Origin: a virus
Taxonomy: Duplodnaviria > Caudoviricetes
Length of the DNA stretch: 64,000 nt
Strand: one strand, 5' to 3'
IMG/VR virus record: IMGVR_UViG_3300032234_000392
Span: 32,001-96,000 of that record
A model generated the notes under the pieces. The model searched no databases. It saw nothing but the letters and a program-made list of their open reading frames with translations, and was not told where the DNA came from. Shown in pieces: positions 32,882 to 61,651 of this stretch. Made by a program: the position numbers and the translations under genes. Position 1 is the first letter of the stretch. The number at the start of each line of letters is the position of its first letter.

Positions 32882-32910
32882 ATTATAACACAATCACCTC
32901 CAGTTGTCAA
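32882..32910 (-). promoter_or_regulatory. Consensus sigma70 promoter of uvsE (leaderless)
   Basis: TTGACA-17 nt-TATAAT with extended -10 TG; ATG follows after a 6-nt spacer. Confidence 0.85.
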
Positions 32911-33694
32911 GAACAAATTTATCCTGTACTGCACAAGGATTCGGATCGCCGTGAAAGACAGCCACTGAACATTCTGGATGTACAACTATGTCATCTTTGA
33001 CAGTTTTGAACTGTCGTTTACTGTTTATTACAACTAATTCTTCTCGACTACGAATTTCCCATTTGTAGCTTTGTATCCATTCTCTAGGCCAAAACTTTAG
33101 TTTACTTTGGCACAGTTTCCAAATCCAATCTTGATCTCCCTGCAGTCGTTGTGCATCTGCAGGTTTGGATTTAAATTCTTGATAGATATGGCTTTGAGTT
33201 CCGTGAGTCCATGCCATAACAGAACTGTTGAGATATTTCCAACTTGCATAAAATTTTCTATTAAAGTCATGAATGCCCAAAAACTGATCTTGACAGTAAA
33301 GACCTAACTTGTCTATATTGGAACAGATTACAACATCAAGATCAAAATATAGTATTCTACCTCGCAATGGTAAGTTAGCATCAAACATGTGTACTTTATG
33401 CCACCATCCTCTTTGATAGTTGGCATTTGGTTGATATATAGTTCTTACACCTTCGATAGTGTGTTGGTCGTCAGTAAGGCAGGCAAACTCATAGGGTATG
33501 GTCATATGTCGGCTAACCATATTACGCAGTCGTTCTACATATTCACGGCCATATTTGTTGCCAAATCTCACGCAGAGAACCGTGAGTTTTCCGTCTAACT
33601 CTGGAGAAATATGTTTTTCTGCTTTAGACAGAGCCTTTAGTGCCTTGGCTTCTCTCTTGATTCGTTTACGTTCTTCTTTTGACAAGTCCATCAA
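32894..33694 (-). CDS. GT-A fold glycosyltransferase (GT8-like)
   Basis: [16 protein letters not shown] (DxD), NSSVM, GDQDWI, VFHG.P.P. Confidence 0.8.
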
Positions 33695-34496
33695 TGGCTA
33701 CCAGCTCTTCTAAAATATTTTTAAGATTATCCAATTTAATCATATTAGGACCATCACTAGGTGCGTTTTCTGGATCTTCGTGAGTTTCCATAAACACCCC
33801 TGCTACACAGCCAGTAGCTACAGCAGCCCTCGCCAAGTAGGGCACCATTTCGCGGTCTCCGCCTGAGACTGATCCCAAGCCTCCAGGCTGTTGTACAGAA
33901 TGTGTTGCATCAAAGACAACGGGATAACCAGTACGTGCCATAATAGGTAGGCTGCGCATATCAACCACAAGATTATTGTATCCATGAGTATATCCTCTTT
34001 CGCATAACATAATTCGTTCGTTTCCGGTTGAAGCAATCTTTGCCGCAACGTTTTTCATATCGTGGGGTGCAAGGAACTGACCTTTTTTCACATTGATTGC
34101 ACACCCAGTGGCACCAGCCGCTAATAATAGATCAGTTTGTCTACATAAGAATGCAGGAATCTGTAATATATCAATTCCTGCATCAGCACAGATCTGTGCT
34201 TGATATGTTTCGTGAATGTCAGTCAGCACTGGAATTCCAAATTCGTGTTTGATTGAATTTAAAATTTTTAAGCCTTCGTCGATACCAATGCCCCTTTGTG
34301 TATTAACACTGCTTCGATTGGCTTTGTCAAAGCTGCTTTTATAGACAAGATCGATATCTAGTTCATCGCAGATTTCTTTAATGCGGCCTGCAGTCTGCTC
34401 AGCATGATCCTGACTTTCAATTTGGCAGGGACCTGCTATAAGAAATATTTTATTAGAGTTGCTGGCAACAACTCGGTTTATTGAAAATGTACGCAT
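33666..34496 (-). CDS. kdsA: KDO8P synthase
   Basis: [45 protein letters not shown]. Confidence 0.95.
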
Positions 34497-34520
34497 ATTA
34501 TTATTTATGCGTATATTCTG

Positions 34521-34970
34521 TTAGACTTCGTAGATTGCGGAGTTAGCACCGTGCTCAGCACATTCAACTCGCACACAATAACACCGATTATTAGTTTTTT
34601 CACGGATCAATTGATCGGCAAAGTTAAAAGCGTGTTCTGCAAACTTTTCTGCACCTACACCATCAAACATTCTAATCTCTGCTAGGCCTAGTGCTTCTAA
34701 TTCTTGGAATTTGGCCAAGTGAGGATCGGCTATATCTAATGCCAACTTGTGATCAAAATGGTCTTCTAGCCATGCCTTTAAGGCTTTAAGTCCACCAAAG
34801 TCTACTGCCCAGTTCTTGTTGTCTAATGAGTCACAACCAAATGTAAACGTAAATGCTAAACTATAACCATGTAGCAAATGACAGTGACTGTGATCTGCAT
34901 TAGGTTGCCGAAATACCGCTGACAGACCAATGTTGTGTCCGTAATGTTTTGTTGAAAGATATTTTGCCAT
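34521..34970 (-). CDS. queD: 6-carboxytetrahydropterin synthase / PTPS family
   Basis: HSHCHLLHGYS, DFGGLK, FDH, E...NSA.Y; AAGGAG SD before ATG 34970. Confidence 0.88.
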   Translation of the reverse strand: MAKYLSTKHYGHNIGLSAVFRQPNADHSHCHLLHGYSLAFTFTFGCDSLDNKNWAVDFGGLKALKAWLEDHFDHKLALDIADPHLAKFQELEALGLAEIRMFDGVGAEKFAEHAFNFADQLIREKTNNRCYCVRVECAEHGANSAIYEV

Positions 34971-35000
34971 CTCTAGTCTCCTTTGTATCGGTAGCAAGTT

Positions 35001-35050
35001 TGATGACTGCAGAATTTTTATAGAGGGATGATGCCATAAAGTCCTCTGTG
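35001..35050 (-). promoter_or_regulatory. Candidate riboswitch: preQ1-I-like H-type pseudoknot in the queD 5' UTR
   Basis: P1 AGAGG/CCUCU, A-rich AUAAAAA tail, P2 AUGGC/GUCAU; lies between the promoter and the queD SD. Confidence 0.6.
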
Positions 35051-35071
35051 CCGCTGTGTGTCTATTGTAAT

Positions 35072-35100
35072 ATTATATTACCTTTGTATTTATAATGCAA
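35072..35100 (-). promoter_or_regulatory. Nested sigma70 and late-type promoters for queD
   Basis: TTGCAT-17 nt-TATAAT, with TATAAATA (35087-35094) inside the spacer. Confidence 0.7.
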
Positions 35101-35686
35101 CAAATTTTACATTATTTTTCTGCCATTCTTTGGGCATAGCCCAGGCAGCGTGATTGATTACAGTAAATTGGCTTTGTGGATAATGTTTGAATATTAGTTC
35201 GGTGTGATATACCCAATATGAATAATCTACTGCTTGCGCATCTGTTTTGGCATAGTTTGGGGTGCCTTTGTAGAGATTGTTCACCCTATCATGTGTGGGA
35301 TATAGATCAAAACCCACTAGAGTAATTTCTTTAAATCCCAAATATGCTGCTAATAAAATAGCATAACAGCCGCTGCCCCAGTGATCGGGATGATCTCTTT
35401 TGGATTCGCCGATGATAGGAATCGGGGGAAGATGTTGTATTCGTTTATTTTTTAGTATTTTACGGAAATAATGATACCAACTGTCTCTGACATAGATCAG
35501 CGTGTCGCCAATATTGGGATTAACAATCGCTTCAGCAACCATTCTGCGATCACAGCAGATTAAATGATCGATTTTAATATCTCTATGTATGCCATTACAG
35601 CCGATTAAGGTATGTGTTGATCGATATGATTCTAGATTAACACCGCGTCTACTTTCGCCGTTGCCGACAACTACAGCCTGAGACAT
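35090..35686 (-). CDS. DUF115/MptE/Maf-like protein (possible nonulosonic/Kdo transferase)
   Basis: VVVGNGESR, LIGCN, SG..A..LA..LGF.EI.LVGFD pattern. Confidence 0.6.
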   Translation of the reverse strand: MSQAVVVGNGESRRGVNLESYRSTHTLIGCNGIHRDIKIDHLICCDRRMVAEAIVNPNIGDTLIYVRDSWYHYFRKILKNKRIQHLPPIPIIGESKRDHPDHWGSGCYAILLAAYLGFKEITLVGFDLYPTHDRVNNLYKGTPNYAKTDAQAVDYSYWVYHTELIFKHYPQSQFTVINHAAWAMPKEWQKNNVKFVAL

Positions 35687-44143: not shown

Positions 44144-44896
44144 ATGAATATTAACAAGTATGAATTTGGTATTTTAGGATACGGTTATGTTGGAAGAGCC
44201 ACACACTTTGGACTTCTAAAAAATCAACCTATTGCAATACACGACACAATATTAGGTACATCAATAACCAATTTAAAAGATTCAAAATTTATTTTTGTTT
44301 GTATCCCAACATCAACAGATAGCGACATTGATCTAATGATAGATACAATGAAATTATTGGTATCCCAAAACCCTCAATGTCAACTGATTGTTAGAAGCAC
44401 TCTTCCAATCGGTAGTTGTGCCAAAATTGAAAGTCAATTAGGTGTAAAGATTTTTTATATTCCAGAATTTTTAAGAGAGCGATTTTGGGAAGAGGACTGC
44501 CAACGACGTCCACTGATAGTTGGACATAACGGACTAATAATTCCCAAATGGTTATCGGTTGAACAACTTACAGAATGCTCTAACCAAGAAGCAGAGATGG
44601 TTAAAATGTTTTCTAACAATTTTGCATCAGTAAGAATTGCGTTTGCCAACTTATTTTATGATGTAGCTCAACAACTTGGCGCAGACTATGATCATATTAA
44701 AACAATGTATTCTAGTGTAGCACACGATCAAACTTATATGGAAGTTCCAGGGCATGACGGAACAAGAGGATTTGGTGGAAAATGCTTGCCTAAAGATTTA
44801 GATTTTATGATTGATACTTTAGATTTTCACAACATAGACAGTCAATGGTTTAAAAATATACGAGAATTAAACAAAAAATGGCAAAAAAAGTTTTAG
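44144..44896 (+). CDS. UDP-glucose/GDP-mannose dehydrogenase family (short, lacks C-terminal domain)
   Basis: GYGYVG, CIPT, RST, PEFLRE, K...N, GFGGKCLPKD. Confidence 0.85.
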   Translation: MNINKYEFGILGYGYVGRATHFGLLKNQPIAIHDTILGTSITNLKDSKFIFVCIPTSTDSDIDLMIDTMKLLVSQNPQCQLIVRSTLPIGSCAKIESQLGVKIFYIPEFLRERFWEEDCQRRPLIVGHNGLIIPKWLSVEQLTECSNQEAEMVKMFSNNFASVRIAFANLFYDVAQQLGADYDHIKTMYSSVAHDQTYMEVPGHDGTRGFGGKCLPKDLDFMIDTLDFHNIDSQWFKNIRELNKKWQKKF

Positions 44897-45750
44897 TCAC
44901 TGGCGCCTCTGGATTAATAGGGAGAGAACTTTGCAAACAGTTGTCTTTAAATTTTACAGTTGTTGGAGTTGATAATGGTTTTCGATATCCGAAAAGCGAA
45001 TCTTCTTTTGAAATCATTCAACAAAATTTAATAGACTATTTGCAAATAACAAAAAACGATTTTGATTTTGTTTTTCACATGAGTGCAATTAACGGAACAA
45101 AATATTTTTATGACATTCCTACTCAGCTAATCGAAAACAATATAACATCTGATCTTGCTGTATTTAATTTTATGCAAAAAAATCCGAACAGCAAATTAAT
45201 CTATGCTAGTAGCAGTGAAATTGTTGCCGGTACTATTGAAATTCCAACCCCAGAACTGGTCGATGTGCATATTGAGAATATACACAATCCACGATGGAGT
45301 TATAGATTAACAAAAATGTTGTCGGAAAATTATTTGATGAACAGTCAAATAAATTTTTTGATTATTAGATTTTTTAATGTGTTCGGAAAACACTCAGGTA
45401 CTGGACATTTTATCAAAGACATAATTGATAAAATACACAATGAAGACTATTCATTAATTGGTGCTAACGAAACTAGATCATTTTGCAGAGTTGAGGATGC
45501 AGTTGATGCAGTTATACATATACATGATCGAGTATCAAGAGAGATAGTTAATGTTGGTAGCGACGAAGAAATTTCAGTTTTAGATGCTGCCAACATTATT
45601 GCTCAACAAAAAAATAAAACGGTTAACTGGAAGTTGATAGATTCTAAGTTAGGTAGCGTTGTAAGGCGGAATCCCTCTCTAAAAAAATTATTAAAATATT
45701 ATCCAACATTTAAACCAAAACGTTTTAAAGATTCGGTCGCTGATCTATGA
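44878..45750 (+). CDS. NAD-dependent epimerase/decarboxylase (UXS/ArnA-like)
   Basis: TGASGLIG, ASSSE, PRWSYRLTK, RFFNVFG, TRSFC. Confidence 0.85.
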   Translation: MAKKVLVTGASGLIGRELCKQLSLNFTVVGVDNGFRYPKSESSFEIIQQNLIDYLQITKNDFDFVFHMSAINGTKYFYDIPTQLIENNITSDLAVFNFMQKNPNSKLIYASSSEIVAGTIEIPTPELVDVHIENIHNPRWSYRLTKMLSENYLMNSQINFLIIRFFNVFGKHSGTGHFIKDIIDKIHNEDYSLIGANETRSFCRVEDAVDAVIHIHDRVSREIVNVGSDEEISVLDAANIIAQQKNKTVNWKLIDSKLGSVVRRNPSLKKLLKYYPTFKPKRFKDSVADL

Positions 45751-46733
45751 CAGATTTTCAATCAATTCCTTTTTCACAGATAGTTCGATTCGGGCAACAG
45801 ACCATGTTGAATCGACCATTATTTTCCACCAGTTGGATACTTGGAAGATTTTGTAATTATAATTGTTCATATTGTTGGCCCTATGCTCGAACCGACGTAC
45901 CTGATTATCAATCGTTGAACACTTATAAACACACCATAGACCAAATAAAACATCAAGCTCGACAAAATGGATTTACTGAATTTCACTGGAGTTTTAGTGG
46001 AGGCGAACCTACTGCCTACAAAGAACTAATTAATCTAATTAAACACCTAGATGACGGTGTCCAAACTCCGTACCAAAGTGTACACATGACTACCAATCTT
46101 AGTCCTAGCAGAAAATGGTGGAAAAATTGGTTAGATGCAACTGCACTATTACAACGTAGAAGTATTACAGCCAGCTTCCATGACGAGTTTGCTCGAGAGC
46201 AAGAGTTTGGAGACAAGTGTCTGCAATTGATATATGATAATGTACACGTGACGATTAATCAAGTTATGGTACCTGAAAAGTTTTATGAACTATATGATAG
46301 AATGACCCGGCTACATAATCGTGGTATTAATATTACTCTCAAGCCCCAAAGCGATCCTACAGCCAGCAGCATTGTCAGCGGTTATACAGAAGATATGATA
46401 CACCTTATGAAGACAGGATTTCCACAACAATCAAAGGGAGAAGATGTCTACCAAATTGCACTGTACGACGCAAACAATACAGAATATCTATTTGATCAAG
46501 CCGAAAGATTTAATGCATTCGGGTTCAATCGTTTTACTGATTGGTCTTGCAATGCTGGCTATCAAAGTGTTATAATAAGAGGTGCTGAAGTTAAAAGATC
46601 TTATAGTTGTCACGATCAACCTCTCGGTACATTAACTCAAGGATTTAATCTGTTTACTCAGCCAGTGGTATGCTCTACGCCTAGTTGTGTTAGTTCAGCA
46701 GATTCTAAGATACCAAAATGCAAGTTGACCTAA
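45747..46733 (+). CDS. Radical SAM protein with C-terminal Cys (twitch-like) domain
   Basis: CNYNCSYC, SGGEP, C-terminal CNAG...SC...C....C. Confidence 0.88.
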   Translation: MTDFQSIPFSQIVRFGQQTMLNRPLFSTSWILGRFCNYNCSYCWPYARTDVPDYQSLNTYKHTIDQIKHQARQNGFTEFHWSFSGGEPTAYKELINLIKHLDDGVQTPYQSVHMTTNLSPSRKWWKNWLDATALLQRRSITASFHDEFAREQEFGDKCLQLIYDNVHVTINQVMVPEKFYELYDRMTRLHNRGINITLKPQSDPTASSIVSGYTEDMIHLMKTGFPQQSKGEDVYQIALYDANNTEYLFDQAERFNAFGFNRFTDWSCNAGYQSVIIRGAEVKRSYSCHDQPLGTLTQGFNLFTQPVVCSTPSCVSSADSKIPKCKLT

Positions 46734-47311
46734 CTCATATATTATTCTGGATGGATGCTATTCGCAATAGCCAAGATCCCAAACGGACATTAGAATCATT
46801 TTGGAAAGGGCAGATTCAAAGTAAAGAGTGGCTATTAGATAATTTGTGCCCTCGACTCCCTTATAATGCTTCAATTGATATTCACGGTGGTTGGAATGGT
46901 GTGCTGGCTAGCTTACTTTTTCAAAAGGTTAAAGATATCAAGAATATTCGCAGTCTAGATATAGATCCCGCTTGTGAAGAAATTGCCTCTACAATGAACA
47001 AGCTGGAAGAAATGCAAGGAAGATTCCATGCTATAACTGCTGACATGTGTGCTGTTCGATCAGACGCCGATGTTATTATCAATACCAGTTGTGAACATAT
47101 TACACAAGAACAATACGATCTGTGGATAAGTGGTGTTCCCTACAACAGTTTAATCGTGTTGCAGAGTAATAATTACGACATTGAAGAACATGTAAGAATT
47201 GCAAATAGTTTAGAACATTTTGTAGAACAGAGCCAATTAGAAGTAAGATGGGCAGGTGAACTTAAACTGCCGTTATACACACGATATATGATTATAGGAA
47301 CACATAAATGA
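46718..47311 (+). CDS. Class I SAM-dependent methyltransferase-like protein
   Basis: IHGGWNG, SLDIDP, ADM, INTSCEH pattern. Confidence 0.65.
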   Translation: MQVDLTHILFWMDAIRNSQDPKRTLESFWKGQIQSKEWLLDNLCPRLPYNASIDIHGGWNGVLASLLFQKVKDIKNIRSLDIDPACEEIASTMNKLEEMQGRFHAITADMCAVRSDADVIINTSCEHITQEQYDLWISGVPYNSLIVLQSNNYDIEEHVRIANSLEHFVEQSQLEVRWAGELKLPLYTRYMIIGTHK

Positions 47312-48147
47312 CACAACGAATTTTAATTATGGGATTGCCTGGGTCGGGTAAAACCACACTAGCAGAAGCACTCAAAAAGTATCTAGAACAACACGGAACC
47401 ATGAATACTTTTGCTGCTGAACAATTACCACTCACAGGATTTGGTGCTCAAGTGACCTGGTTCAATGCTGATGACATACGTCGCAAGTACAATGACTGGG
47501 ACTTCAGCAATGATGGTCGTATTCGTCAAAGTATGAGAATGTTTCAGTTTAGTATAGAGGCAGGTGGCGACTATGTTATTTGTGACTTTGTTGCTCCACT
47601 AGTAGAAATGCGTAATAATTTTAAAGCTGATTGGACTATATGGGTAGATACTATCCGTGAAGGTCGCTATGCCGACACGAATGCGGCCTTTGTCGAGCCC
47701 GAAGTATATGACTTCCGAGTCACAGAACAAAATGCAGAAAAGTGGGCAGAATTTATTGGCGAGCATATTATAGAAAATCGTCGCCGGCCTACGTTTGATT
47801 GGAAGAAAGAAACAGTACAGATGTTAGGTCGCTGGCAACCGTGGCATGATGGACATCGTGCATTGTTTGAAAGACTAATAGCACGTACAGGACAAGTGGT
47901 TATTCAAATACGTGATGTGCAAGGATGGCAAGGTAGCAATCCATTCGAAGTGGCAAAAGTCAAGGCATTCATTCGTCGAGACCTAGACCCAATCTATCAA
48001 GGACAATATGAAATACAAGTAGTTCCAAATATTGTACACATCGGTTGGGGCAGAGGAGTAGGATATACCAGTGGCGAGGAAACATTCGATGAAACAATTA
48101 CAGATATTAGTGCTACAAAGATTCGTAAGGAACTGGGTCTAAAGTGA
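47308..48147 (+). CDS. APS-kinase-like P-loop domain fused to an HxGH nucleotidyltransferase domain
   Basis: GLPGSGKTT, NADDIR...DFS.DGR; C-terminal GRWQPWHDGH and ISATKIR. Confidence 0.75.
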   Translation: MTQRILIMGLPGSGKTTLAEALKKYLEQHGTMNTFAAEQLPLTGFGAQVTWFNADDIRRKYNDWDFSNDGRIRQSMRMFQFSIEAGGDYVICDFVAPLVEMRNNFKADWTIWVDTIREGRYADTNAAFVEPEVYDFRVTEQNAEKWAEFIGEHIIENRRRPTFDWKKETVQMLGRWQPWHDGHRALFERLIARTGQVVIQIRDVQGWQGSNPFEVAKVKAFIRRDLDPIYQGQYEIQVVPNIVHIGWGRGVGYTSGEETFDETITDISATKIRKELGLK

Positions 48148-48356
48148 ACAAATATCACATTAGATTTAATACACAACACAATGGATCGGGTCTGTGCTGG
48201 CGTATTTTTGAAAATGGGCAAGAACATTTGGTACGCAGTTTTAAGATAACTGCAACTACCTTTGATGAAATTACTGTAGAAAACGGTGTAGAAAAATGGA
48301 ATCTGTGTTGTCACGGATACATGACTATTATCGACAATCATGCAATAATTAGATAG
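48144..48356 (+). CDS. Hypothetical protein
   Basis: 70-aa ORF with GTGA overlap. Confidence 0.65.
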   Translation: MNKYHIRFNTQHNGSGLCWRIFENGQEHLVRSFKITATTFDEITVENGVEKWNLCCHGYMTIIDNHAIIR

Positions 48357-48369
48357 GGAAGGTATTAAA

Positions 48370-49128
48370 ATGCAAAATTTAATATTTTCTACAACCAGTA
48401 AAGAAATAAAAAAACTTAATTTTATTAGAACAGATCCCGATATTGACAGTGATTTTTATGGAACTGATACTAAAAAGTTATTTGAAACAAATTTAAAAAC
48501 TCAAAGTGATACATGGCTCTATAGAACACAACCAGTAAACTATTCAGTCAATTCAGATGGATATAGAACAAAAGAGTTTAAAATGATTGATTGGGCTAAT
48601 TCGATAGTTGTGTTTGGATGTTCGGTAGTTTTCGGTACAGGTGTTGATAACCAACACACTATACCAGCAATGATTGAACAGCAATCTGGAATACCTACAA
48701 TTAATATGGGAATAGGCGGATCCTCGATGATGGCCTCTTTTCATAATTCTCTAATACTAAATCAAAGATACCCAACTCCTCTAGCAATAGTTCATTTGTG
48801 GACTGATTATTCTAGAACAGTTTATTACTATAAAAAATATGTAGAACATTACGGAGCTTGGGATATTAAAGATAATAATTACATACATCATTGGAACAAG
48901 GATGAAGAACACGCTAAATGTCAAGCATTGTTCGTACAAATGGCTAGCCAACAAATATGGAATGGGCGTACAAAATACTATGAAGCTAGTCTATTTTCAG
49001 CAACACAAAAATTATTAGGTTGCGACAAAATAAATGACAGATACGACAAAGCAAGAGATTTAATGCATAACGGCATCGAAACAAATAAAAATGCAGCTAA
49101 ACAAATTTTAGATAATTTGGAACTATAA
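48370..49128 (+). CDS. SGNH/GDSL-like hydrolase
   Basis: FGCSVVFGTG, NMGIGGSS, D.MHNG (DxxH) blocks. Confidence 0.65.
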   Translation: MQNLIFSTTSKEIKKLNFIRTDPDIDSDFYGTDTKKLFETNLKTQSDTWLYRTQPVNYSVNSDGYRTKEFKMIDWANSIVVFGCSVVFGTGVDNQHTIPAMIEQQSGIPTINMGIGGSSMMASFHNSLILNQRYPTPLAIVHLWTDYSRTVYYYKKYVEHYGAWDIKDNNYIHHWNKDEEHAKCQALFVQMASQQIWNGRTKYYEASLFSATQKLLGCDKINDRYDKARDLMHNGIETNKNAAKQILDNLEL

Positions 49129-49476
49129 ATGCAACGATGTTCGATTAAAATTTCTAATTTAAATGTAAATTACCAAGACTACAAAGAATTTGATTCTGCA
49201 GTTGAAGAAATTCTGTTATCAAAATATGGTGAAGAATTTATTTTTGATTTTGACGTATGGTGGAGACAATCTAGCATCGATTATAGAGTAAAAAATTATT
49301 CGCTGCATTCAAAAAATTGGGACCCTAAATCAAAATCATCTATAATTATTTGGGAAACTCCTAACCAAATAACACCGTTCGTAAATTATTTTTTTAATCA
49401 CAAAATGTTTTTAAAATTTAAAAATGCACTAGAAGAAAAAGAGTGGATTGTTAGCGAAACAATTATTGAAATATGA
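49129..49476 (+). CDS. Hypothetical protein
   Basis: 115-aa ORF contiguous with its neighbours. Confidence 0.6.
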   Translation: MQRCSIKISNLNVNYQDYKEFDSAVEEILLSKYGEEFIFDFDVWWRQSSIDYRVKNYSLHSKNWDPKSKSSIIIWETPNQITPFVNYFFNHKMFLKFKNALEEKEWIVSETIIEI

Positions 49477-50099
49477 AACCAGTAATGTTATATACTTTAC
49501 CAAGAACAAGAGCTACGGTACTTTTTTATGGGTGTCGTAGAGCTATTGTTAAAGACGAAGTTTTTTCTTCTACTAATTTAGATTTAAATGCTGATAGTAT
49601 TAGAAAAGCGTTCTATAAAATTGAAGATCCAAATACTGTATTAAAAATACACGGAGCACATATTAGCAGATCATCGATTGTGCAAGAATGGTACAGCAAA
49701 TCTTTAGATTCTAAAACATATGACATATTTGTAGTTGAACGCCCAGATAGACTAAACACATTTCTAAGTCTTATTCTTGCAGAAAAATTTGGATATATTA
49801 AAGCAGAAGAAATTGATCCTTTTGAATTTTTCGTAACTGAAAATGACATAGAAAAAATTAAAGATGAAATAGATCACTATCTCAAATACTATCCAACTTA
49901 TGGTACGATAGTTAATTTAAAAAATTATCCTCAAGATTATTTTGATCCGTTATTAATGAATACCAACGATCAAGAAAGTTATAAAAAATATCAATATATT
50001 AAAAACTTTAACTGGACGGTAGACCAAATACAAAAGATTTTAACATCCGTCGAAACTAAATGGCAACAAAAAATTAACAACTTAAATACACACATATGA
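49473..50099 (+). CDS. Possible sulfotransferase-like P-loop protein
   Basis: N-terminal TLPRTRAT resembles the PRT(G)S 5'-PSB loop; later R.D....FLS..LA. Confidence 0.45.
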   Translation: MKPVMLYTLPRTRATVLFYGCRRAIVKDEVFSSTNLDLNADSIRKAFYKIEDPNTVLKIHGAHISRSSIVQEWYSKSLDSKTYDIFVVERPDRLNTFLSLILAEKFGYIKAEEIDPFEFFVTENDIEKIKDEIDHYLKYYPTYGTIVNLKNYPQDYFDPLLMNTNDQESYKKYQYIKNFNWTVDQIQKILTSVETKWQQKINNLNTHI

Positions 50100-50920
50100 T
50101 AGAATACGGAATAGTTAAATGGTTTAATGATGCTAAGGATTATGGATTTATACTATCTGACAAAGATGGATCCTCTATCCTAGCAGAAAAGTGGAACATA
50201 AAAGCAGACCCTCAGGTACTGTTTGAACTTCAGCAGGTTTCTTTTGAAAGAATAGAAACAGAAGAAGGTAGTAAAGCTATCAACATTAATATACTTTCAT
50301 CGGTGATTGAACACAAACATTTAGCCATGCCAAGAATAAGTGTTTTCGACAATCTGTTGCCTATAGAGGTATGTAATAGTATTATTGAAAGACATTCTAG
50401 AAACGGAATGAATCCTAATTCGGGAAAACAATCTAGACAAGAATCTTTTCAACAGGTAACAGAATTGGTAGAAAATAGAGGTATCAGTCTAGGAGTAGAT
50501 CCCTATCATTATGATATACTAGCAACAGCTATTGTTAACTCTGCTAAAATTCCTTATAGTCACATAGAAGCTATTGATATCTATAACTATCCAGTGGGTA
50601 ATTATTTAGATTTGCATCACGACTATCCATACGATCCAAAACAAATTAACTATTATAGATATGGCGGAGATAGAGTAGGCACAGGAATCTTCTTTTTGAA
50701 CGACGACTTTGTAGGAGGACAAACAGCCTTTCCAAAATTAAATGTTGAAATTCAGCCCAAGGCTGGATCCTTTTTATATTTTGAACAAGGGTATGATGAA
50801 GCCACTAACTGGAGCACCATTCATGAAAGCAGAAAAATTACTCAAGGATGTAAGTGGATCGCCAGTTGTTTCTTTAGTGATCAACCTAGAGTAGGATACA
50901 AGGTAAGAGACTTTGACTGA
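50096..50920 (+). CDS. Cold-shock domain fused to a prolyl 4-hydroxylase-type 2OG-Fe(II) oxygenase
   Basis: G.VKWFNDAKDYGFI (CSD RNP1); Y..G.Y...HHD, FLND...GG.T.FP, P..G....F, H......G.KW. Confidence 0.85.
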   Translation: MIEYGIVKWFNDAKDYGFILSDKDGSSILAEKWNIKADPQVLFELQQVSFERIETEEGSKAININILSSVIEHKHLAMPRISVFDNLLPIEVCNSIIERHSRNGMNPNSGKQSRQESFQQVTELVENRGISLGVDPYHYDILATAIVNSAKIPYSHIEAIDIYNYPVGNYLDLHHDYPYDPKQINYYRYGGDRVGTGIFFLNDDFVGGQTAFPKLNVEIQPKAGSFLYFEQGYDEATNWSTIHESRKITQGCKWIASCFFSDQPRVGYKVRDFD

Positions 50921-51605
50921 TATTAGTAATTGGATTCCTTTTTTAAAAATAGACGAAGATGGCTCGAGATGTATGTCTCAGCAAACCTACGAACCGTTGT
51001 TTAATCCAGAACGCACTATATTTTGTGCCAATTATGATTGGGCCAACAAATATCAACGACAAGAAGATCCTAACAGAACGTTATATACTCCCGCAGTAAC
51101 TGATTGGTTCTTTGATAATGAAATACATAACTTATTAAAGTATAAAGATAAGACTTACACTCCTAATATTATAGACATCGACTATAACGCAAAACAGATA
51201 TTTTTTGAATGGCAGGGCGAAACCTGTAATGAAATTATCTACGGCGGTAAAAACTTAGATAATTACTGTAATAATTGGAAAGAACAACTTCGGTATATAA
51301 TGACAGATCTTTACAATACCGGAACATATAAATTGACTATGTATCCACATTGTCATTTTATACAGGAAGGTCAAATGAAAACAATAGACTGGTATGGATG
51401 CGTTCCAGTTGAACATCCATTTATCAATGCAGAATATATGGATGGAATTATTCACGAATCGGCTAAATTTAGATTGGCTGAAACCGGAGCTATTATTAAC
51501 AATCAGTATAATTTAGAAATTATGTTTCAACGTTCTATGCAAGAACACGTGAAATGGGGAGACTCTACAATGGAATATATCTACAAGGAAATTTTTAATG
51601 CCTAA
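50913..51605 (+). CDS. Divergent protein-kinase-like fold protein
   Basis: E...L, P.I.DID, YK..MYPHCHFI...MKTIDW; similar to 63239..63931. Confidence 0.5.
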   Translation: MTDISNWIPFLKIDEDGSRCMSQQTYEPLFNPERTIFCANYDWANKYQRQEDPNRTLYTPAVTDWFFDNEIHNLLKYKDKTYTPNIIDIDYNAKQIFFEWQGETCNEIIYGGKNLDNYCNNWKEQLRYIMTDLYNTGTYKLTMYPHCHFIQEGQMKTIDWYGCVPVEHPFINAEYMDGIIHESAKFRLAETGAIINNQYNLEIMFQRSMQEHVKWGDSTMEYIYKEIFNA

Positions 51606-52164
51606 CCGCATTGGTTCTACTAATGGGTTAATTGATTGGGACAATATTATAAAAAATATTGTGCCTCGTAGCGGAGATTATAACAGTCCTAGTACTGTCA
51701 CAGATCGAGTTAAAGATGATCCTAAGGTGAATCTTGGATATTACAAAGATATAATGGATACTTGGGAGAAAGCCAACTATAATTTTAAAAATATTGAATG
51801 GTGGGATTACTATCCGGGAGAACATTTCAACAGCAGTATACAAGATATATTTGCTAATATAGTCAACGCAGATCCTAAACGTGTATTCATTTCTGAAGTT
51901 ATGCCTGGCCAGTGTGTTCCGTATCATTGGGATGTAGAGGACAACGAAGATGAATGGCTAACACAGGGTAATCTTGTACGCTACGTCTGTTTTATAGATA
52001 AACCAAAATTTGCTCATGCATTTATGCTAGGTAATGAATGCTTTTGTAATATAGAACAAGGTGAAATATATCAATGGGATCATTATAGAGATTACCATGC
52101 TGGAACTAATGCTGGACAAAGTCCTTATTATCTTTTTCATTTTTTAGGAATCTCTAATGATTAA
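51598..52164 (+). CDS. 2OG-Fe(II) oxygenase (Asp/Asn beta-hydroxylase-like)
   Basis: PG..VPYHWD (HxD) and distal YHAGTN. Confidence 0.75.
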   Translation: MPNRIGSTNGLIDWDNIIKNIVPRSGDYNSPSTVTDRVKDDPKVNLGYYKDIMDTWEKANYNFKNIEWWDYYPGEHFNSSIQDIFANIVNADPKRVFISEVMPGQCVPYHWDVEDNEDEWLTQGNLVRYVCFIDKPKFAHAFMLGNECFCNIEQGEIYQWDHYRDYHAGTNAGQSPYYLFHFLGISND

Positions 52165-53005
52165 GAACATAGGAATATACGGCAATAGTATTGCAGGATA
52201 CAATGGGCAACAGCCCGATCATTTTATTACTTTGTTAAAAGAATATTTTAATGCAAATATAGTTCATTCCGGTATAACTCAATGTAGTGAAGAACGTATT
52301 CTTTTTAATTTAAAAAAAACAAAAAAATTAGACTTAGCAGTTGTATTTCATTCTCCGCCATACAATATTTTTGTTCCTAGTTGGGACAGAGATATTACCA
52401 GTGTCGATCGAACAACATTAAACAAAAAAATTAGTACTAAACAATGGATGAAATCGTGTGTAGGAGTTGAACCTAACACCGTTGAAAAATTATTTGATTC
52501 GATTCCAAATGGGGCATGTTGGCAGGTTTTATCTCATTTTAACATTAGTTTTGAAAACTACTCTGAAGCCTTTGAAAAATGGGCGGAGGGAGATTCGACA
52601 GAAATAAAAGAATTAGTCACCATTTATGCTAGGTCTAAACATCAGGATGCCGAATACTACAAAGGTCTTTTTGATGCCTTAGAGTTATCTAAAACATATT
52701 TGAGTCATCCGGACTTACAAATGAATAGGTATTACGGAGCAATGATTCAAATAGATCAATATTTAAAACATAAAAATATACCTTGTGTACATTTTTTAGA
52801 TAAAGAAAAATGGTATCCAGTCTGGGCAAAAATTGAATCAGGCCCAGTTGATCATGATTTAACAATCATAAACAAGGAAAATAGTAAATATTTTGTAGGT
52901 TATAATAAATCTTCTAATGCATTATCATCGGACGGTAATAAATTAATATTTGATAGAATTTTAGAACTTTTAAAAATCTCAAATGAGGTTCTAATAAATG
53001 ATTAA
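52157..53005 (+). CDS. SGNH-like protein (degenerate)
   Basis: IYGNSIA block I, G...CSE.RI; the expected catalytic His appears replaced (SSNALS). Confidence 0.5.
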   Translation: MIKNIGIYGNSIAGYNGQQPDHFITLLKEYFNANIVHSGITQCSEERILFNLKKTKKLDLAVVFHSPPYNIFVPSWDRDITSVDRTTLNKKISTKQWMKSCVGVEPNTVEKLFDSIPNGACWQVLSHFNISFENYSEAFEKWAEGDSTEIKELVTIYARSKHQDAEYYKGLFDALELSKTYLSHPDLQMNRYYGAMIQIDQYLKHKNIPCVHFLDKEKWYPVWAKIESGPVDHDLTIINKENSKYFVGYNKSSNALSSDGNKLIFDRILELLKISNEVLIND

Positions 53006-53555
53006 CTTTTTAGGAAATACCAATCTAATTATAGACTGGGATAATGTTATAAAAGATTTAGAAAACTGCGACAACAGTAATAAAAAGCCAGGACACGGTC
53101 CTACACATAAAGCTGGAGATCCAATTCCTCTTTTGAATGAAGTCACTGATATATGGACCAAAGAAGGATATAAAACTATTGAACTAGGCGGAACAGTGCA
53201 TTGGGACATGTTTTTTCCAGGAGTACATTACGATCAAAGTGTTGAAGATAAATTTTGTGAATTTTTTAAAATTGTCCCTAATTCTCGTTCGTGGATCAGT
53301 AGGATCTGGCCTGGACATCAAGCGCCGATGCATTGGGATGTACACGATGACGAAGCAGAACTATTAACAAAACCTGATATGCCAAGATGGCATTGTCATA
53401 TTGGAAAGCCAACATTTGGTCACCTATTTGTCTGCGAAAATGAAGTGTTTTATAACAAACAGCAAGGTGACACATTCCAGTGGGCGTCTCGTAGATATTG
53501 GCATGCTGGGACTAACTGTGGCCTAACACCTAAATACCTTTTTAACTTATATTAA
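52998..53555 (+). CDS. 2OG-Fe(II) oxygenase, paralog of 51598..52164
   Basis: PG..APMHWD and WHAGTN. Confidence 0.75.
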   Translation: MINFLGNTNLIIDWDNVIKDLENCDNSNKKPGHGPTHKAGDPIPLLNEVTDIWTKEGYKTIELGGTVHWDMFFPGVHYDQSVEDKFCEFFKIVPNSRSWISRIWPGHQAPMHWDVHDDEAELLTKPDMPRWHCHIGKPTFGHLFVCENEVFYNKQQGDTFQWASRRYWHAGTNCGLTPKYLFNLY

Positions 53556-53559
53556 TATT

Positions 53560-53742
53560 ATGACTGATAAACCTGTATTCACTGATCCTTTTTACATAGA
53601 TAAATTTATGGAAATACAACAACAGAATATTGTGCTGTATAAAATATTATTAAAAATTAAAGAAGATCCAGAATTATATAAAAACGTCACCGATAAGTTT
53701 GGTAATGATATTTTTAAAATTTTAGAACAATGTCCAGCCTAA
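53560..53742 (+). CDS. Hypothetical protein
   Basis: 60-aa ORF in operon. Confidence 0.55.
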   Translation: MTDKPVFTDPFYIDKFMEIQQQNIVLYKILLKIKEDPELYKNVTDKFGNDIFKILEQCPA

Positions 53743-54185
53743 CCTATTGTAGAGTCAAACTATCAGATACTGATTATCAAAAAGCAGACAATGCTATTTT
53801 GTTTGTGTATCCGCCTGTTGACAAATTAAAAAAAATCTATTTTGAGTATTGTGAACACAAAAAATTTGTCAGTGTTATGCCGTTATTTGAATCATATTTT
53901 ACAGACACAAATATCGATATTTGGGGATATACTGATCGAGACGTATTAGTAGCATTTAGTATTGTTAAAAAACACGATCAGCAAAATGTAGAAAGTTTGC
54001 AATTTGCGTGGAACTATAAAAATTCTAAATTAGAATTAGGTCATTTAAGTTTAGAACACGAGTGTGCCACTTATAAATCTCTAGGTTATAAGTATCTATA
54101 TCTTGGAGAAGCCAACAAATACAAATCTAAATTAAAAGGTTATGAGCTTTTAGGAAGTCTCCAAGACACTACTGAATCAAAATAA
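53730..54185 (+). CDS. Aminoacyl-tRNA--protein transferase-like (ATE1/Bpt C-terminal GNAT domain)
   Basis: LVAFS, W.Y....LELG..SL..E...K.LG.KYLYLG....YK pattern. Confidence 0.6.
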   Translation: MSSLTYCRVKLSDTDYQKADNAILFVYPPVDKLKKIYFEYCEHKKFVSVMPLFESYFTDTNIDIWGYTDRDVLVAFSIVKKHDQQNVESLQFAWNYKNSKLELGHLSLEHECATYKSLGYKYLYLGEANKYKSKLKGYELLGSLQDTTESK

Positions 54186-54634
54186 TCTTTATCCCAATGT
54201 TTGTAGTAGCCTAGGGGTTTTAAATATTCACTAGCTGCATTAAGTTTTTCTAATGACTGACATAAAATTAAATTATATTTTCCGTTGTTGAAACTTATAT
54301 CACCTACAGTTTCAGCAACAGCCACATGATCCTCTAGACATCCGTATCCTATTGGTACATACTTTTCATTGATTTTAGATACATCTTCGCTGAATTGTAT
54401 TGGGTCAACATCGTCATCACAGACTAGTATAATAACGTCTATTTTATCATTCCAATTAGAAAATATTTGGTCTATATCGCTAATATAATCTTTAGATTTT
54501 TGAAATTTAATTTTATCATTTAGTAAAGCAGATTTTGCAAACGGGCAACGCGGTAAATTATTTAAAAGCAGTTCTGGTTTACTTAAATCGTTAACAATCC
54601 AATTGGTTAGATATTGTTCATAATCCGTAGTCAT
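54140..54634 (-). CDS. Hypothetical protein (CPFA motif, DUF1415-like)
   Basis: LPRCPFAK motif; start MTTDYEQ at 54634. Confidence 0.6.
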   Translation of the reverse strand: MTTDYEQYLTNWIVNDLSKPELLLNNLPRCPFAKSALLNDKIKFQKSKDYISDIDQIFSNWNDKIDVIILVCDDDVDPIQFSEDVSKINEKYVPIGYGCLEDHVAVAETVGDISFNNGKYNLILCQSLEKLNAASEYLKPLGYYKHWDKDYFDSVVSWRLPKSS

Positions 54635-55799
54635 TTTGTCCGCCTCTACGAGCAACATCTAAAGTTAAACAGTGCCAACCGCCATCCCAGAAGAATCTAT
54701 GACGCAACGGACATACAATAGGAGTAATACCTCGACTTTCTAATAAAGAAATCAGCCTAGGACTATTGCTGTTAATTACCACATGCTTGTCGTCAATTAC
54801 TAAACTGTTAATATCAAAAATTGTTTCTTCAACAAATCCAGTCCAGTTAGGTAAGAAGGATTCTACAAAATGTGTAAAGTCATCATTCCGCTCTTCACCA
54901 GGAACCCACCACTTGCCCTTGTTTTTACTGCGTAAGTCTAACCATTCTCTAACACCGTCCCATCTAGAATCATTAAAGAAAACAACTTCCCAATTCTTAA
55001 AGGCCCCTTCAGATCCTTTGAACCAAGGTCCCGAAACTACCAATCCAGGTTTAAGAACAGTAAAAATGCTATCATTGTGTCCGCCAAGGTTGAGCGACTC
55101 GTAATCAAATATAGGATACTTGTCTTGTAGAAACTCAAGCAGCGTGGGTGTTTGATTTAAATCCACCAAACATTTTTTACCTATCCTTGTTAAATTAGGA
55201 CTACAAAATCCCATTAACACATTTTCTTCAATTAGCTTGCGTTTTTGTTCTTCAGTAAAATCTGCCAGTGTTTCGCCTAGATTACGATCTTTGATGTATC
55301 GTTCTAGACATTCTTCAGTTTGATAAAATTTATAGTTTCCATTGTATATACTTAAATCTACCTGATCTGCTCCAAACCATTCGACAAACTTTTTTGTATA
55401 ACCGGCGACTTCAAATGTTCTATCAGTAATAAGAATTTTATTACCCATAACCACAGCATCATCTCTGACTTGTAATGGACTTGTAGGAATCAAACTGTCT
55501 TTAACAAAGTCTGGATTATCACTGCCGTAGCCCAACTTGCCGTTGACATCTACATAGTCTAGTATGCTAGATTTATATCCCAGCTCTGTTGGTGTAGCCT
55601 GGAACACATCTACATTGTGTGATCTAAGTTGTTGTTTGAAATACTCAATGTCTTCGTTGGTTTCGTCTACAATGCGTTTGAGAACATCGCCAATTTTCTT
55701 ATTCTTGACACCGTCAAAAAAACTGCTGTCGTATATGCTGCCTACAACAACTGCTTCTAAGGGTTGAAATTCGTCCCAACTGTTTACTTTATTGTGCAT
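54618..55799 (-). CDS. Amidinotransferase (glycine/inosamine-P amidinotransferase family)
   Basis: VNSWDEFQPLEAVVVG, RDD, GH.D, FD.N, GGWHCLT; start ATG 55799. Confidence 0.85.
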   Translation of the reverse strand: MHNKVNSWDEFQPLEAVVVGSIYDSSFFDGVKNKKIGDVLKRIVDETNEDIEYFKQQLRSHNVDVFQATPTELGYKSSILDYVDVNGKLGYGSDNPDFVKDSLIPTSPLQVRDDAVVMGNKILITDRTFEVAGYTKKFVEWFGADQVDLSIYNGNYKFYQTEECLERYIKDRNLGETLADFTEEQKRKLIEENVLMGFCSPNLTRIGKKCLVDLNQTPTLLEFLQDKYPIFDYESLNLGGHNDSIFTVLKPGLVVSGPWFKGSEGAFKNWEVVFFNDSRWDGVREWLDLRSKNKGKWWVPGEERNDDFTHFVESFLPNWTGFVEETIFDINSLVIDDKHVVINSNSPRLISLLESRGITPIVCPLRHRFFWDGGWHCLTLDVARRGGQNDYGL

Positions 55800-56121
55800 C
55801 TGGCCAATCTCTAAAATAGGCATGCTGTATGTTGCCGCTTACAAACTGATTAAAACTTTTATGCTTGTCTTCTAACTCGCCTTCTAATGGTGCTACTCTT
55901 TGGAAAGCACTTTCTAATTGTGCCATTCCTGTAAACTCCATCATGATGTGCCATTCTGGTAAATTCTCAATGCTGCGAAATCCCATCTTGCATCTAGTGA
56001 TGCGAAAGCTGTGCATTTTGCCTTCATCGACAAGATGCTGAAGAAAACGTTTCATGTTGTTGACCCATTCAAGGTCGCTGATATTGCCCTCTTTGTCTGC
56101 CCAGATGTGATAAATGTCCAT
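55789..56121 (-). CDS. Small alpha/beta hypothetical protein (DUF6614-like)
   Basis: RCKMGF...LPEWHIMMEF..MAQL..AF...YFRDWP; TAAATA 4 nt upstream of ATG. Confidence 0.6.
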   Translation of the reverse strand: MDIYHIWADKEGNISDLEWVNNMKRFLQHLVDEGKMHSFRITRCKMGFRSIENLPEWHIMMEFTGMAQLESAFQRVAPLEGELEDKHKSFNQFVSGNIQHAYFRDWPDAQ

Positions 56122-56128
56122 GCTATAT

Positions 56129-57025
56129 TTACGAGTTTTTTATTTTTGTTAGAGGAATATCGGCAGCACAAGTACACCAGTCTCGAGTACAGATAATTGG
56201 GTCTGTTGGTCGAACAAATGTGCCTTGATATATATTGCCTAAACTGCCACCAACACGACAAGTGGCACGATGTACATCGCCGTCCCAATTGATCATGAGG
56301 CTTTCTAGTCCAGCATTGCATTGCCAACCTTTGAATTGATTTTGATGAGTTTTAATTATGTCGTTGGCATGCATTATTATTGAATCATCTACACGACAAT
56401 TTGTTTTCACCGTGGCTTCTTTGGCAATTATCCATTCTAAGTCCTTGCCATCATAACGCATGTCGTCAAACACATTATGATCCCCCTCAGTCCAGCGTAT
56501 TCTACGCACAGCATATTTGATACCGATTTCTTGGAACTTCTTAACTACAGTTCTAACATGATCCATTTTGTCGTGATGTGCCATGACATTGACAAAAAAC
56601 TCTCGCTCTGTGCTATCGTAATATTTTAGTATTGTATCAACAATTCGTGTCCAATCATGTTCAAAATGCAGACTAAACACAAGATGATTGAAAAACATTT
56701 CGTTGTTAAGATACCATTGATAGCCTCTAGTTCCATTGGTGGTTATATTCACCCAGTATATGTTTTTGCGTTTGAAGTAGTCAAGTAGATCTTCTATGTC
56801 TGGATGCACACAAGGTTCTCCGCCGGTTAGACTGATTCGTAAAGGCTTGTCTAATTCACATAATCTATCAACAGCAGCTTCTAGAACATTGATGTCTGTA
56901 TGCGGACTATAATTATCGTGTATACTAGCTGGGCAATAACTGCAATCGTAGTTGCAACGCTTGCCAAGATTCCACTCAACTTTGATTTGATCCTGATGTG
57001 GCCACGAACTTGTTATCTTAAACAT
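56129..57025 (-). CDS. Radical SAM protein with twitch-like domain
   Basis: CNYDCSYC, TGGEP, TTNG, C-terminal CNAG...C...C.C. Confidence 0.9.
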   Translation of the reverse strand: MFKITSSWPHQDQIKVEWNLGKRCNYDCSYCPASIHDNYSPHTDINVLEAAVDRLCELDKPLRISLTGGEPCVHPDIEDLLDYFKRKNIYWVNITTNGTRGYQWYLNNEMFFNHLVFSLHFEHDWTRIVDTILKYYDSTEREFFVNVMAHHDKMDHVRTVVKKFQEIGIKYAVRRIRWTEGDHNVFDDMRYDGKDLEWIIAKEATVKTNCRVDDSIIMHANDIIKTHQNQFKGWQCNAGLESLMINWDGDVHRATCRVGGSLGNIYQGTFVRPTDPIICTRDWCTCAADIPLTKIKNS

Positions 57026-58280
57026 ATGGCTTAAACTCGGGAGTCACATCTGTAAAACTTTGATTTCTTGTTAGATCCAACCTGCGATTGAATTCAATAC
57101 AGTCTTGCCACAACTCGCTTTGATCTTTGGCACGTAGGAAGTTTTGCACTCCTTCGATCTGCCCTAGAGTGATACCCATGAGTATTGGTCGCTCTTCGAT
57201 CATTTTATAATTGTGTATTTTACTCTTTACAGCTTCTAATCTATCATAGGCAATGTCTTTTAGAGGTTGTGGCATTGTTTGAATACTCAACACATTAGGA
57301 TATTGTACCATGTTGGTATAGAATACAATGCCTAGATCATCTAAAAAGTATTTGATCATTTTGTCCAATACCATGACATTGCTGACTTGCACAGCCACAG
57401 CACCTACAATGCGGCTGATGTTGGGTATTGTTTGTATTTGTTTAATATTGTTAATTAGTTCCGCCCACGAAGCGTTGCCTCGAACATATTCATAACTTGT
57501 ACCAATACCATCTATACTTACGTTTACTGCCACTGATTTGAACTTAGGCCAGTACTGCCATATGGTTCTATTGTTTTTGCCCAATGTGGTTAAATTAGTA
57601 GCATACTTGATTTCGATTTGATTGCCATATGGTACCAACATGTCTAAGATCCTATAGTGCTGCGGATCCATCAATGGCTCTCCACCTGCAAATTCTACCC
57701 GGCGAAAGTGTGGCAGATTCTTTTCTAGACTAGCCCACCACTCTGCATTGTCTTCAAACTTGTCTAGCAGTGGTTTATTTTCTAGATTATGTTCTTCTAC
57801 CATTTGATAAATTACTTGTCCCTCATCTTTGTAGAAGTCTTTGATTTCTGCCCAATCATTCCAGCTGGTACTGTCACCAGGATGACACATACGACACTTT
57901 AAGTTGCACAAATTATTAAGTTTGATTTCCATAGTAGGAATCTCAAACGGCATGGTAAAGTCGTGTGACATTTTGCTCACAGCATCTGGGTATAAAGTAA
58001 TACGTGCCTCTGGAATAACTCCAGCAATATGTCGCTGACGTAGACTCTCTACTCCCTGATCTTCTAAATTAAAACAAGGAGCACATTCTGATGGGCGTTC
58101 TCCGCTTAATACTTGTTTGCGAATGCGTTGCATCGTTTCGCCGTTCCAATGATATTCTAAGGGAGCGTCCTGAATAAATCCAATAGGATGACTGCGGCAG
58201 CATACCTGTATAGCACCGTCCTCTCGAGTTGCCAATCCCGTAAAAGGATGCATACAAAATGTTTTACTTTGATTGTTCAA
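57018..58280 (-). CDS. Radical SAM protein with N-terminal twitch/SPASM domain
   Basis: CMHPF...VCC...C..C at the N-terminus; CNLKCRMC; AGGEP. Start is uncertain (TTG 58280 chosen). Confidence 0.88.
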   Translation of the reverse strand: MNNQSKTFCMHPFTGLATREDGAIQVCCRSHPIGFIQDAPLEYHWNGETMQRIRKQVLSGERPSECAPCFNLEDQGVESLRQRHIAGVIPEARITLYPDAVSKMSHDFTMPFEIPTMEIKLNNLCNLKCRMCHPGDSTSWNDWAEIKDFYKDEGQVIYQMVEEHNLENKPLLDKFEDNAEWWASLEKNLPHFRRVEFAGGEPLMDPQHYRILDMLVPYGNQIEIKYATNLTTLGKNNRTIWQYWPKFKSVAVNVSIDGIGTSYEYVRGNASWAELINNIKQIQTIPNISRIVGAVAVQVSNVMVLDKMIKYFLDDLGIVFYTNMVQYPNVLSIQTMPQPLKDIAYDRLEAVKSKIHNYKMIEERPILMGITLGQIEGVQNFLRAKDQSELWQDCIEFNRRLDLTRNQSFTDVTPEFKPYV

Positions 58281-59845: not shown

Positions 59846-59857
59846 ATAAGTATTTAG

Positions 59858-61603: not shown

Positions 61604-61651
61604 TGATTAAAATGGATCCAATAAATATGCTACTATTTACAGGAACTAACG

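Follow-up and report, generated by a model that had tools for sequence, protein, structure and literature searches.

The leader pseudoknot of the T4 gene 32 mRNA is autoregulatory and is bound by gp32. The add adenine riboswitch of Vibrio vulnificus is a translational ON switch; on a biosynthetic gene, an ON switch is unusual.

The preQ1-I riboswitches (RF00522), such as the type I aptamer of Carnobacterium antarcticum (PMC8752633, PMC11625349), are small H-type pseudoknots located at the 5' end of the mRNA. They combine a 5-bp P1 stem with a G-C closing pair, an A-rich L3 that can line the P1 minor groove, and a P2 stem of 3-4 bp with an A-U pair facing the junction, and they are linked to genes of the queuosine/7-deazaguanine route. 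The specificity cytosine, which lies 5' of the P1 3' strand, follows a U in type I and an A in types II and III (PMC11625349). All known preQ1 riboswitches are OFF switches (PMC11625349), preQ1-I acting via a terminator or via a P2 that occludes the Shine-Dalgarno sequence (SD). Riboswitches are rare in phages, and those that have been reported are copies of bacterial classes (PMC9004378). The element described here, which lies in the leader of a queD-like gene, has the main features of the preQ1-I fold but differs from it in being found only on phage or phage-like contigs.

The queD leader of a lake jumbo phage

The window, a stretch of 64,000 nucleotides, corresponds to bases 32001-96000 of a 163-kb IMG/VR virus record that was judged 46% complete. 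It comes from an uncultured lake jumbo phage whose close relatives are metagenome phage records of 222-357 kb; a blastn search of GenBank phages gave no match to the locus. The gene presumed to be regulated (34521-34970, minus strand) encodes a QueD-like protein of 149 aa (COG0720) that matches PF01242 (5.9e-14) and phrog_2389 (2.3e-40), and that scores 35.6 bits with TIGR03367, the NCBIfam QueD equivalog, which is below the 89.25-bit cut-off. On the same strand, the upstream ORF (35090-35686) encodes a phrog_30607 protein, and a gap of 119 nt separates its stop codon (35092-35090) from the queD ATG (34970-34968). The SD, AAGGAG (34983-34978), lies 7 nt before this ATG. The genes of the neighbourhood (32894-35686) are sugar-related: the phrog_30607 protein gene comes first, then queD, a KdsA-like DAHP_synth_1 gene and a phrog_1962 glycosyltransferase gene, in this order.

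A nested pair of promoters had been proposed for this leader, and both boxes are visible in the sequence. The first is a sigma70-like promoter region (35072-35100, minus strand) consisting of TTGCAT (35100-35095), a 17-nt spacer and TATAAT (35077-35072); the second is a T4-type late-promoter-like box, TATAAATA (35094-35087, minus strand), which overlaps the stop codon of the upstream ORF. PMC9004378 uses TATAAAT as the core of T4-type late promoters. The sigma70-like promoter, however, was not called by the promoter scan because its -35 box is weak. In a relative (L003), 7 nt separate P1 from the end of a TTGACC-16-TATAAT promoter (11 of 12 matches), and in other relatives the TATAAATA box is found 6-20 nt upstream of P1; overall, the promoters of the relatives' leaders end 6-20 nt before P1. 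The predicted transcript start positions are deduced from these boxes. An intrinsic terminator belonging to the upstream gene was considered and rejected, since the stretch that follows the hairpin is A-rich and not U-rich and no terminator was called there by the scan.

The original prediction placed in this leader a P1 stem AGAGG/CCUCU, an A-rich tail, a P2 stem AUGGC/GUCAU and an SD 19 nt after P2, and every one of these parts is found on the minus strand where it was said to be. Reading 5' to 3' on that strand, the 5' strand of P1, AGAGG (35047-35043), pairs with CCUCU (35026-35022). L1 is ACUUU (35042-35038); across the family it reads N-C-U plus 0-6 variable nucleotides, and in the QueD-anchored alignments described below the C and the U are conserved to 90% or more. 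The 5' strand of P2 (35037-35029, hereafter P2a) comprises an outer segment AUGGC (35037-35033), unpaired A35032 and U35031, and an inner segment made of C35030 and A35029. L2 is UC (35028-35027), and C35027, directly 5' of the P1 3' strand, is an invariant column of the alignment. After P1 comes the tail AUAAAAAUUCUGCA (35021-35008), whose first part is L3, AUAAAAAUUC (35021-35012), an A-rich loop that ends in an invariant A followed by Y-U-C. The 3' strand of P2 (35011-35003, hereafter P2b) comprises inner U35011 and G35010, unpaired C35009 and A35008, and the outer segment GUCAU (35007-35003); covariation supports both P2 strands. The UUCUGCA segment had been taken for a plain extra tail. 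This part of the prediction has to be revised: the UG of this segment pairs with the CA of the loop (C35030-G35010 and A35029-U35011), thereby extending P2 inward, and in the window these inner pairs are set apart from the five outer pairs by two mismatches.

A single instance of the pattern AGAGG-N12-20-CCTCTATAAAAA is present in the window, versus 0.00 expected. The minimum free energy (MFE) of the leader is unremarkable (z-score -0.65), but its MFE fold is uninformative because a pseudoknot is outside the fold model.

Conservation and covariation of the leader element

A search anchored on the protein retrieved 80 loci whose QueD is 88-95% identical to that of the window, 78 of them with enough upstream DNA. 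The element is present in all 78 usable leaders, 8-25 nt before the start codon. In two of them (L057 and L067) it lies farther from the conserved N-terminus of QueD; in L067, the protein carries an in-frame N-terminal extension of 25 aa, and the element is once more directly next to the start codon. The resemblance of P1 and the tail to the Bacillus subtilis aptamer, on which the prediction had partly been based, is present in the window but turns out to be specific to its lineage, since of the 78 leaders only seven have AGAGG/CCUCU, and the consensus sequence of the family reads AGCGG/CCGCU, with AUAYAAAY.

Covariation was assessed on an alignment of 63 distinct leaders, A3, which is QueD-anchored, register-consistent and trimmed at its ends; in two preceding alignments (A1 and A2), MAFFT had misregistered P2, a fault mended by the end trimming. 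In A3, 90.5% of the cells are paired, as against 39-54% when the partners are slid relative to each other, and nine pairs out of ten display changes on both sides. None of 500 shuffles reached the observed pairing, although the sequences are related, so that shuffle statistics overstate their independence. P1 is paired in 97.7% of the cells of A3 and in 97.7-98.2% over this alignment and the second one below, and four of its five pairs changed on both sides, the exchanges being AU/UA, GC/CG/AU/UA and CG/AU/UA. The inner part of P2 is formed by the invariant loop C-A and the invariant U-G of the segment once regarded as extra tail: the C-G pair does not vary, and the A-U pair, which gives way to G-C in three distinct sequences, is intact in all of them. 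Because P2 extends inward in this way, L2 is reduced to (U/A/C)C and L3 to 10 nt. The family architecture is thus a 5-bp P1, a P2 with 4-7 outer base pairs, a mismatch and the inner C-G/A-U pairs, and an A-rich 10-mer as L3, which is about 4 nt shorter in a group of leaders with a shorter P1. The invariant unpaired or loop bases are the C that precedes the P1 3' strand, U-C-A in the loop and A..UC.G in L3.

A second set was assembled with a DNA pattern for the loop and the tail core, which matched at least 119 IMG/VR contigs. Among the matches listed, the next gene is QueD-like at 80 of 80 loci, the proteins being 34-92% identical to that of the window. Ninety-three matches were aligned with a model that encodes P1 only, which makes this alignment independent of the P2 fit. 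The full pseudoknot is paired in 92.6% of the cells, as against 33-50% with slid partners, and double changes occur in 10 of 12 pairs. Since the search pattern itself imposes part of the invariant bases on this second set, invariance was judged from A3 alone. A duplex-energy rank test for P2 and a cross-partner control for the start-site helix (see below) did not discriminate because many leaders have G/C-rich strands in common; they were replaced by register-anchored pair counts with a shuffle control.

Alignment of the related leaders thus bears out the proposed H-type pseudoknot with exactly the P1 and P2 predicted: both stems are conserved and both covary. Compensating base changes have preserved the knot in hundreds of uncultured phages. 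As this covariation puts the element far beyond chance, it is virtually certain that it is a real structured RNA.

Alternative pairing of P2 with the start site

From its second base onward, and together with the bases that follow it, P2b is the complement of either the start-codon region or the SD. In the window, the segment GUCAUC (35007-35002, minus strand) can pair either within P2 or with GAUGGC (34971-34966, minus strand), which contains the start codon and would be its partner in the OFF state; the evidence for this segment comes from MFE folds of the leader and its expression platform. A helix of at least 6 bp with the start site or SD can be drawn for 55 of 58 distinct leaders in one count and, in the independent set, for 70 of 73, the latter compared with about 23% after strand shuffling. 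Besides the GUCAUC/GAUGGC pairing of the window, start-site helices include UGCCAUUG/CAAUGGCA, UGUCAUUGUU/AACAAUGGCA, CCAUUAUUA/UAAUAAUGG and GCCAUA/UAUGGC, and CCUAUG/CAUAGG and UGUCUUC/GGAGACA are examples of pairing with the SD; CAUUGUU with AACAAUG and CAUC with GAUG are found as well. The commonest platform type is the SD hairpin CCUAUG/CAUAGG, which is invariant and therefore provides no covariation. Three-way covariation is seen in leaders in which QueD starts with AUGACUU and not AUGGCA: P2b (AAGUCAUC, AAGUCAU(C)) and P2a (AAGACUU) are changed along with the start. Since P2a, the start region and P2b change together, P2a mimics the start region, and both compete for P2b. In relatives whose platform is of the SD-hairpin type (type b, e.g. 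L013:1843-1870), the loop of CCUAUG...CAUAGG is CUAUAAU, and the corresponding DNA, TGCTATAAT, is an extended -10-like box that could be an internal promoter bypassing the switch.

The terminator scan called no terminator near or after the element, either in the window or in the relatives, which points to control at the level of translation. Given that P2b is complementary to the start site or SD and covaries with it, formation of the knot should turn translation on. The original prediction recognized the preQ1-I-like layout of this leader, and on that point it holds; it missed the anti-start/anti-SD character of P2b, which reverses the presumed logic to ON. A translational switch operating through the alternative pairing of P2b is very probable.

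The mechanism that I propose is as follows. The element would be a phage-specific cis-regulatory RNA with which the queD mRNA begins, folded as a compact H-type pseudoknot. When the knot is not formed, the helix between P2b and the start codon or SD would hide the initiation site. Stabilization of the knot, most likely through binding of a small ligand beside the invariant C where P1 and P2 meet, would free the initiation site and allow translation of QueD. The add adenine riboswitch provides a parallel for this step, in that aptamer binding takes up a strand that otherwise sequesters the SD or start codon, but it has an unrelated fold, a three-way junction, and its ligand is known. What is observed is a conserved structure, the second pairing of P2b and an exclusive link to QueD; the participation of a ligand, and its nature, are my inference. 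The leader displays general features of riboswitches, namely a covarying structured element with conserved unpaired bases in a 5' UTR and a pseudoknot strand engaged in mutually exclusive pairings.

Two mutually exclusive folds do not in principle require a ligand, and the same pairings could make an RNA thermometer, a cotranscriptional folding timer for queD translation or the target of a trans-acting RNA. Some 12 bases of the junction and loops that do not pair are, however, strictly conserved across very divergent phages, and neither a thermometer nor a timer needs them; as for a trans-acting RNA, no partner is known. A ligand-independent device of this kind is therefore improbable.

Relation to preQ1-I, candidate effectors and distribution

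Could the element be an ordinary preQ1-I riboswitch, a member of RF00522 that senses preQ1 and represses queD? The two have in common the H-type pseudoknot at the mRNA 5' end, a 5-bp P1 whose closing G-C pair is invariant in the phage element, the A-rich L3, an A-U pair of P2 facing the junction and the link to a gene of the que pathway. The specificity cytosine also has a counterpart: the C before the P1 3' strand is invariant, and the base preceding it is mostly U, as in type I, but also A or C. By analogy with C17 of preQ1-I (PMC11625349, PMC8752633), C35027 is a candidate for the base that would pair with the ligand. The divergences are numerous, though. U6 of preQ1-I, the first base of L1, contacts the ligand, whereas the first base of L1 in the phage element is A, C or U with about equal frequencies and is followed by the conserved C-U. 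In preQ1-I, L3 runs directly into P2 (A30, and in type I a single C, C31); the phage element has an A-rich patch with an invariant A and then Y-U-C before P2b, and its L3 carries additional invariant bases. Its P2 amounts to some 7-10 layers with an internal mismatch, about twice the 3-4 bp of preQ1-I, and its L2 is only 2-3 nt long, unlike that of preQ1-I. In addition, the SD lies 5-25 nt downstream of P2, hence outside it, and P2b acts as an anti-start or anti-SD strand, with predicted ON logic, where preQ1-I shuts off expression.

In Rfam 15, no match at gathering score was obtained in the window, none at E<=10 with a 501-nt segment or the 66-nt element alone, and none in the loci of 12 relatives, which supports the earlier suggestion that the element departs from RF00522; matches at permissive thresholds were snoRNA and miRNA noise only. 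Full-text literature searches returned no published description of the motif. The element is thus like preQ1-I in its fold but lacks the covariance-model score, the L1 uridine, the P2 length, the SD within P2 and apparently the direct run from L3 into P2, and is best described as pseudoknot-riboswitch-like and not as a member of RF00522.

The pathway encoded by the phage bears on the same question. The record that contains the window encodes FolE, a QueE homologue 47% identical to QueE of Synechococcus phage BUCT-ZZ01, and a PRTase-like stretch. QueE, the PRTase-like stretch and FolE are grouped (G000:C1:12538-16095) upstream of base 1 of the window, about 50 kb from queD, in a cluster that recalls the QueE-XGPRT-hyp-QueD-FolE block of BUCT-ZZ01. 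QueC and TGT/DpdA are absent from this record and from four nearly complete relatives, and QueF is absent from the record. The Pfam QueC family (PF06508) gave no match at E<=0.001 anywhere in the record, including 44144-63931 of the window, and tblastn with two phage QueC proteins found nothing in it. The phage route hence seems to run from GTP to CPH4 and CDG with no phage route to preQ0 or preQ1, and it may end at CDG or a CDG-derived nucleotide. This pathway and the ON logic together make preQ1 itself a quite unlikely ligand, and favour a precursor, or a guanine- or pterin-like compound able to pair with the C. As the complete relatives are devoid of QueC and TGT, the phage would be unable to make preQ1 by itself; in view of this and of the structural differences listed above, an ordinary preQ1-I riboswitch is very improbable.

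A single strong copy of the element was found in each phage genome searched, namely the record of the window (G000) and four records that are 96-100% complete. The L007 contig is an exception: a second copy precedes a gene encoding a 236-aa protein, immediately upstream of queD (copy and gene at L007:1629-2415). Homologues of this gene adjoin the element and queD in other phages, many related ones having the gene directly upstream of queD, and the element directly precedes them in L112:1118-1911 and L123:1119-1893. The 236-aa protein has no Pfam match but carries a DLGCGWN motif; its profile matches to solved structures are all weak and are to methyltransferases only (best E 0.009). It is predicted on this basis to be a SAM-dependent methyltransferase, and this methyltransferase-like gene next to queD is the only other gene found to be preceded by the element. 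A degenerate copy of the element (27 bits) is present upstream of a methyltransferase-like gene at L173:4-52, with P1 ACCAG/CUGGU; UUCGC replaces UCUGC, leaving the inner A-U pair of P2 uncompensated, and the copy may be a decaying duplicate.

The second target is pertinent to a further explanation, in which the element serves as a translational operator for a protein, or as a structural switch that needs no ligand; a phage or host protein, such as QueD itself or a translational regulator, would bind the knot and shift its balance with the start-site helix. All the structural evidence is as compatible with a protein effector as with a small molecule, and the phages with the element are T4-like, T4 itself having an autoregulatory pseudoknot in its gene 32 leader. 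The gene 32 pseudoknot is likewise of the H type, stands at the start of the mRNA of a T4-type phage and takes part in translational control, but its effector is a protein, gp32, the gene it controls is another one, no alternative pairing with the start codon is known for it, and sequence similarity to it is not expected. The conserved unpaired bases of the queD element cluster at the helix junction, and a knot of 45-55 nt with this arrangement has the layout of a small-molecule aptamer. Moreover, the element remains unchanged while QueD diverges down to 34% identity, which argues against a coevolving contact between QueD and the RNA, and it also precedes the methyltransferase-like gene, a different one. 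A protein operator is accordingly an unlikely explanation.

A small-molecule riboswitch is, by comparison, a rather probable one, and the best overall account, with a somewhat better than even chance of being right, is a ligand-stabilized phage pseudoknot acting as an ON switch for QueD. As a guess, the ligand might be a guanine- or pterin-like compound of the GTP-CPH4-CDG route, for example dihydroneopterin triphosphate, the substrate of QueD, or a 7-deazaguanine. A more specific proposal, which I put forward tentatively, its chances falling somewhat short of even, is that the element represents a new phage-only riboswitch class, preQ1-I-like in its fold but with a larger pocket at the junction. 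Its ligand would be a compound other than preQ1 (for example 7,8-dihydroneopterin triphosphate, CPH4, CDG or another 7-deazaguanine), and it would turn on, by feed-forward, QueD and in some phages the neighbouring methyltransferase, within a FolE-QueD-QueE pathway that lacks QueC and DpdA. Were the ligand found, a new riboswitch class would be defined. Engineering would gain a sensor of natural origin, an ON-type pseudoknot some 50 nt long, and there would be a pointer to the product of the phage FolE-QueD-QueE route without QueC and DpdA, a question in phage 7-deazapurine biology. The element, for which there is no Rfam family, is abundant in uncultured freshwater and some marine phages of the T4-like and jumbo types; its fold is the smallest known for a riboswitch, here put to use with the logic reversed.

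Cellular genomes were searched with a strict pattern, using one genome per prokaryote species (GTDB species representatives). The scan returned 25 matches, approximately the number estimated for chance; seven are real according to both models. Five of these are on 4-8-kb contigs of metagenome-assembled genomes (MAGs) and two on contigs, 22 kb and 32 kb long, from a single marine 'Rickettsiales' MAG. A phage-like queD follows in all seven cases. The contigs concerned (L137-L161) are assigned to MAGs of Bacteroidetes, Nitrospira, Crocinitomicaceae, Chitinophagales and Rickettsiales, and are probably phage DNA mis-binned into MAGs. One of the Rickettsiales contigs is syntenic with the window (phrog_30607, QueD and phrog_1962 glycosyltransferase) and carries a phage exonuclease. 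No cellular chromosome with the element was found among the GTDB species representatives with this one pattern, whose strictness makes the absence from bacteria weak evidence.

Several other candidates were discarded. Two matches in Idiomarina chromosomes lack P1 and are due to chance, and weak model matches at G000:C1:8082-8112, G001:C1:62364-62390 and 62509-62546 of the window are noise, as they are not common to both models. In the cultured phages BUCT-ZZ01, Pan1 and Motura, the QueD of which is at most 55% identical, queD abuts the upstream gene and neither model matches.

The surroundings of queD in other contigs are also of note. In a marine contig (L144:814-3799), the gene order is phrog_30607, an ORF without assignment, QueD and the phrog_1962 glycosyltransferase, and in L007 a glycosyltransferase, a methyltransferase and an epimerase/dehydratase are encoded downstream of queD.
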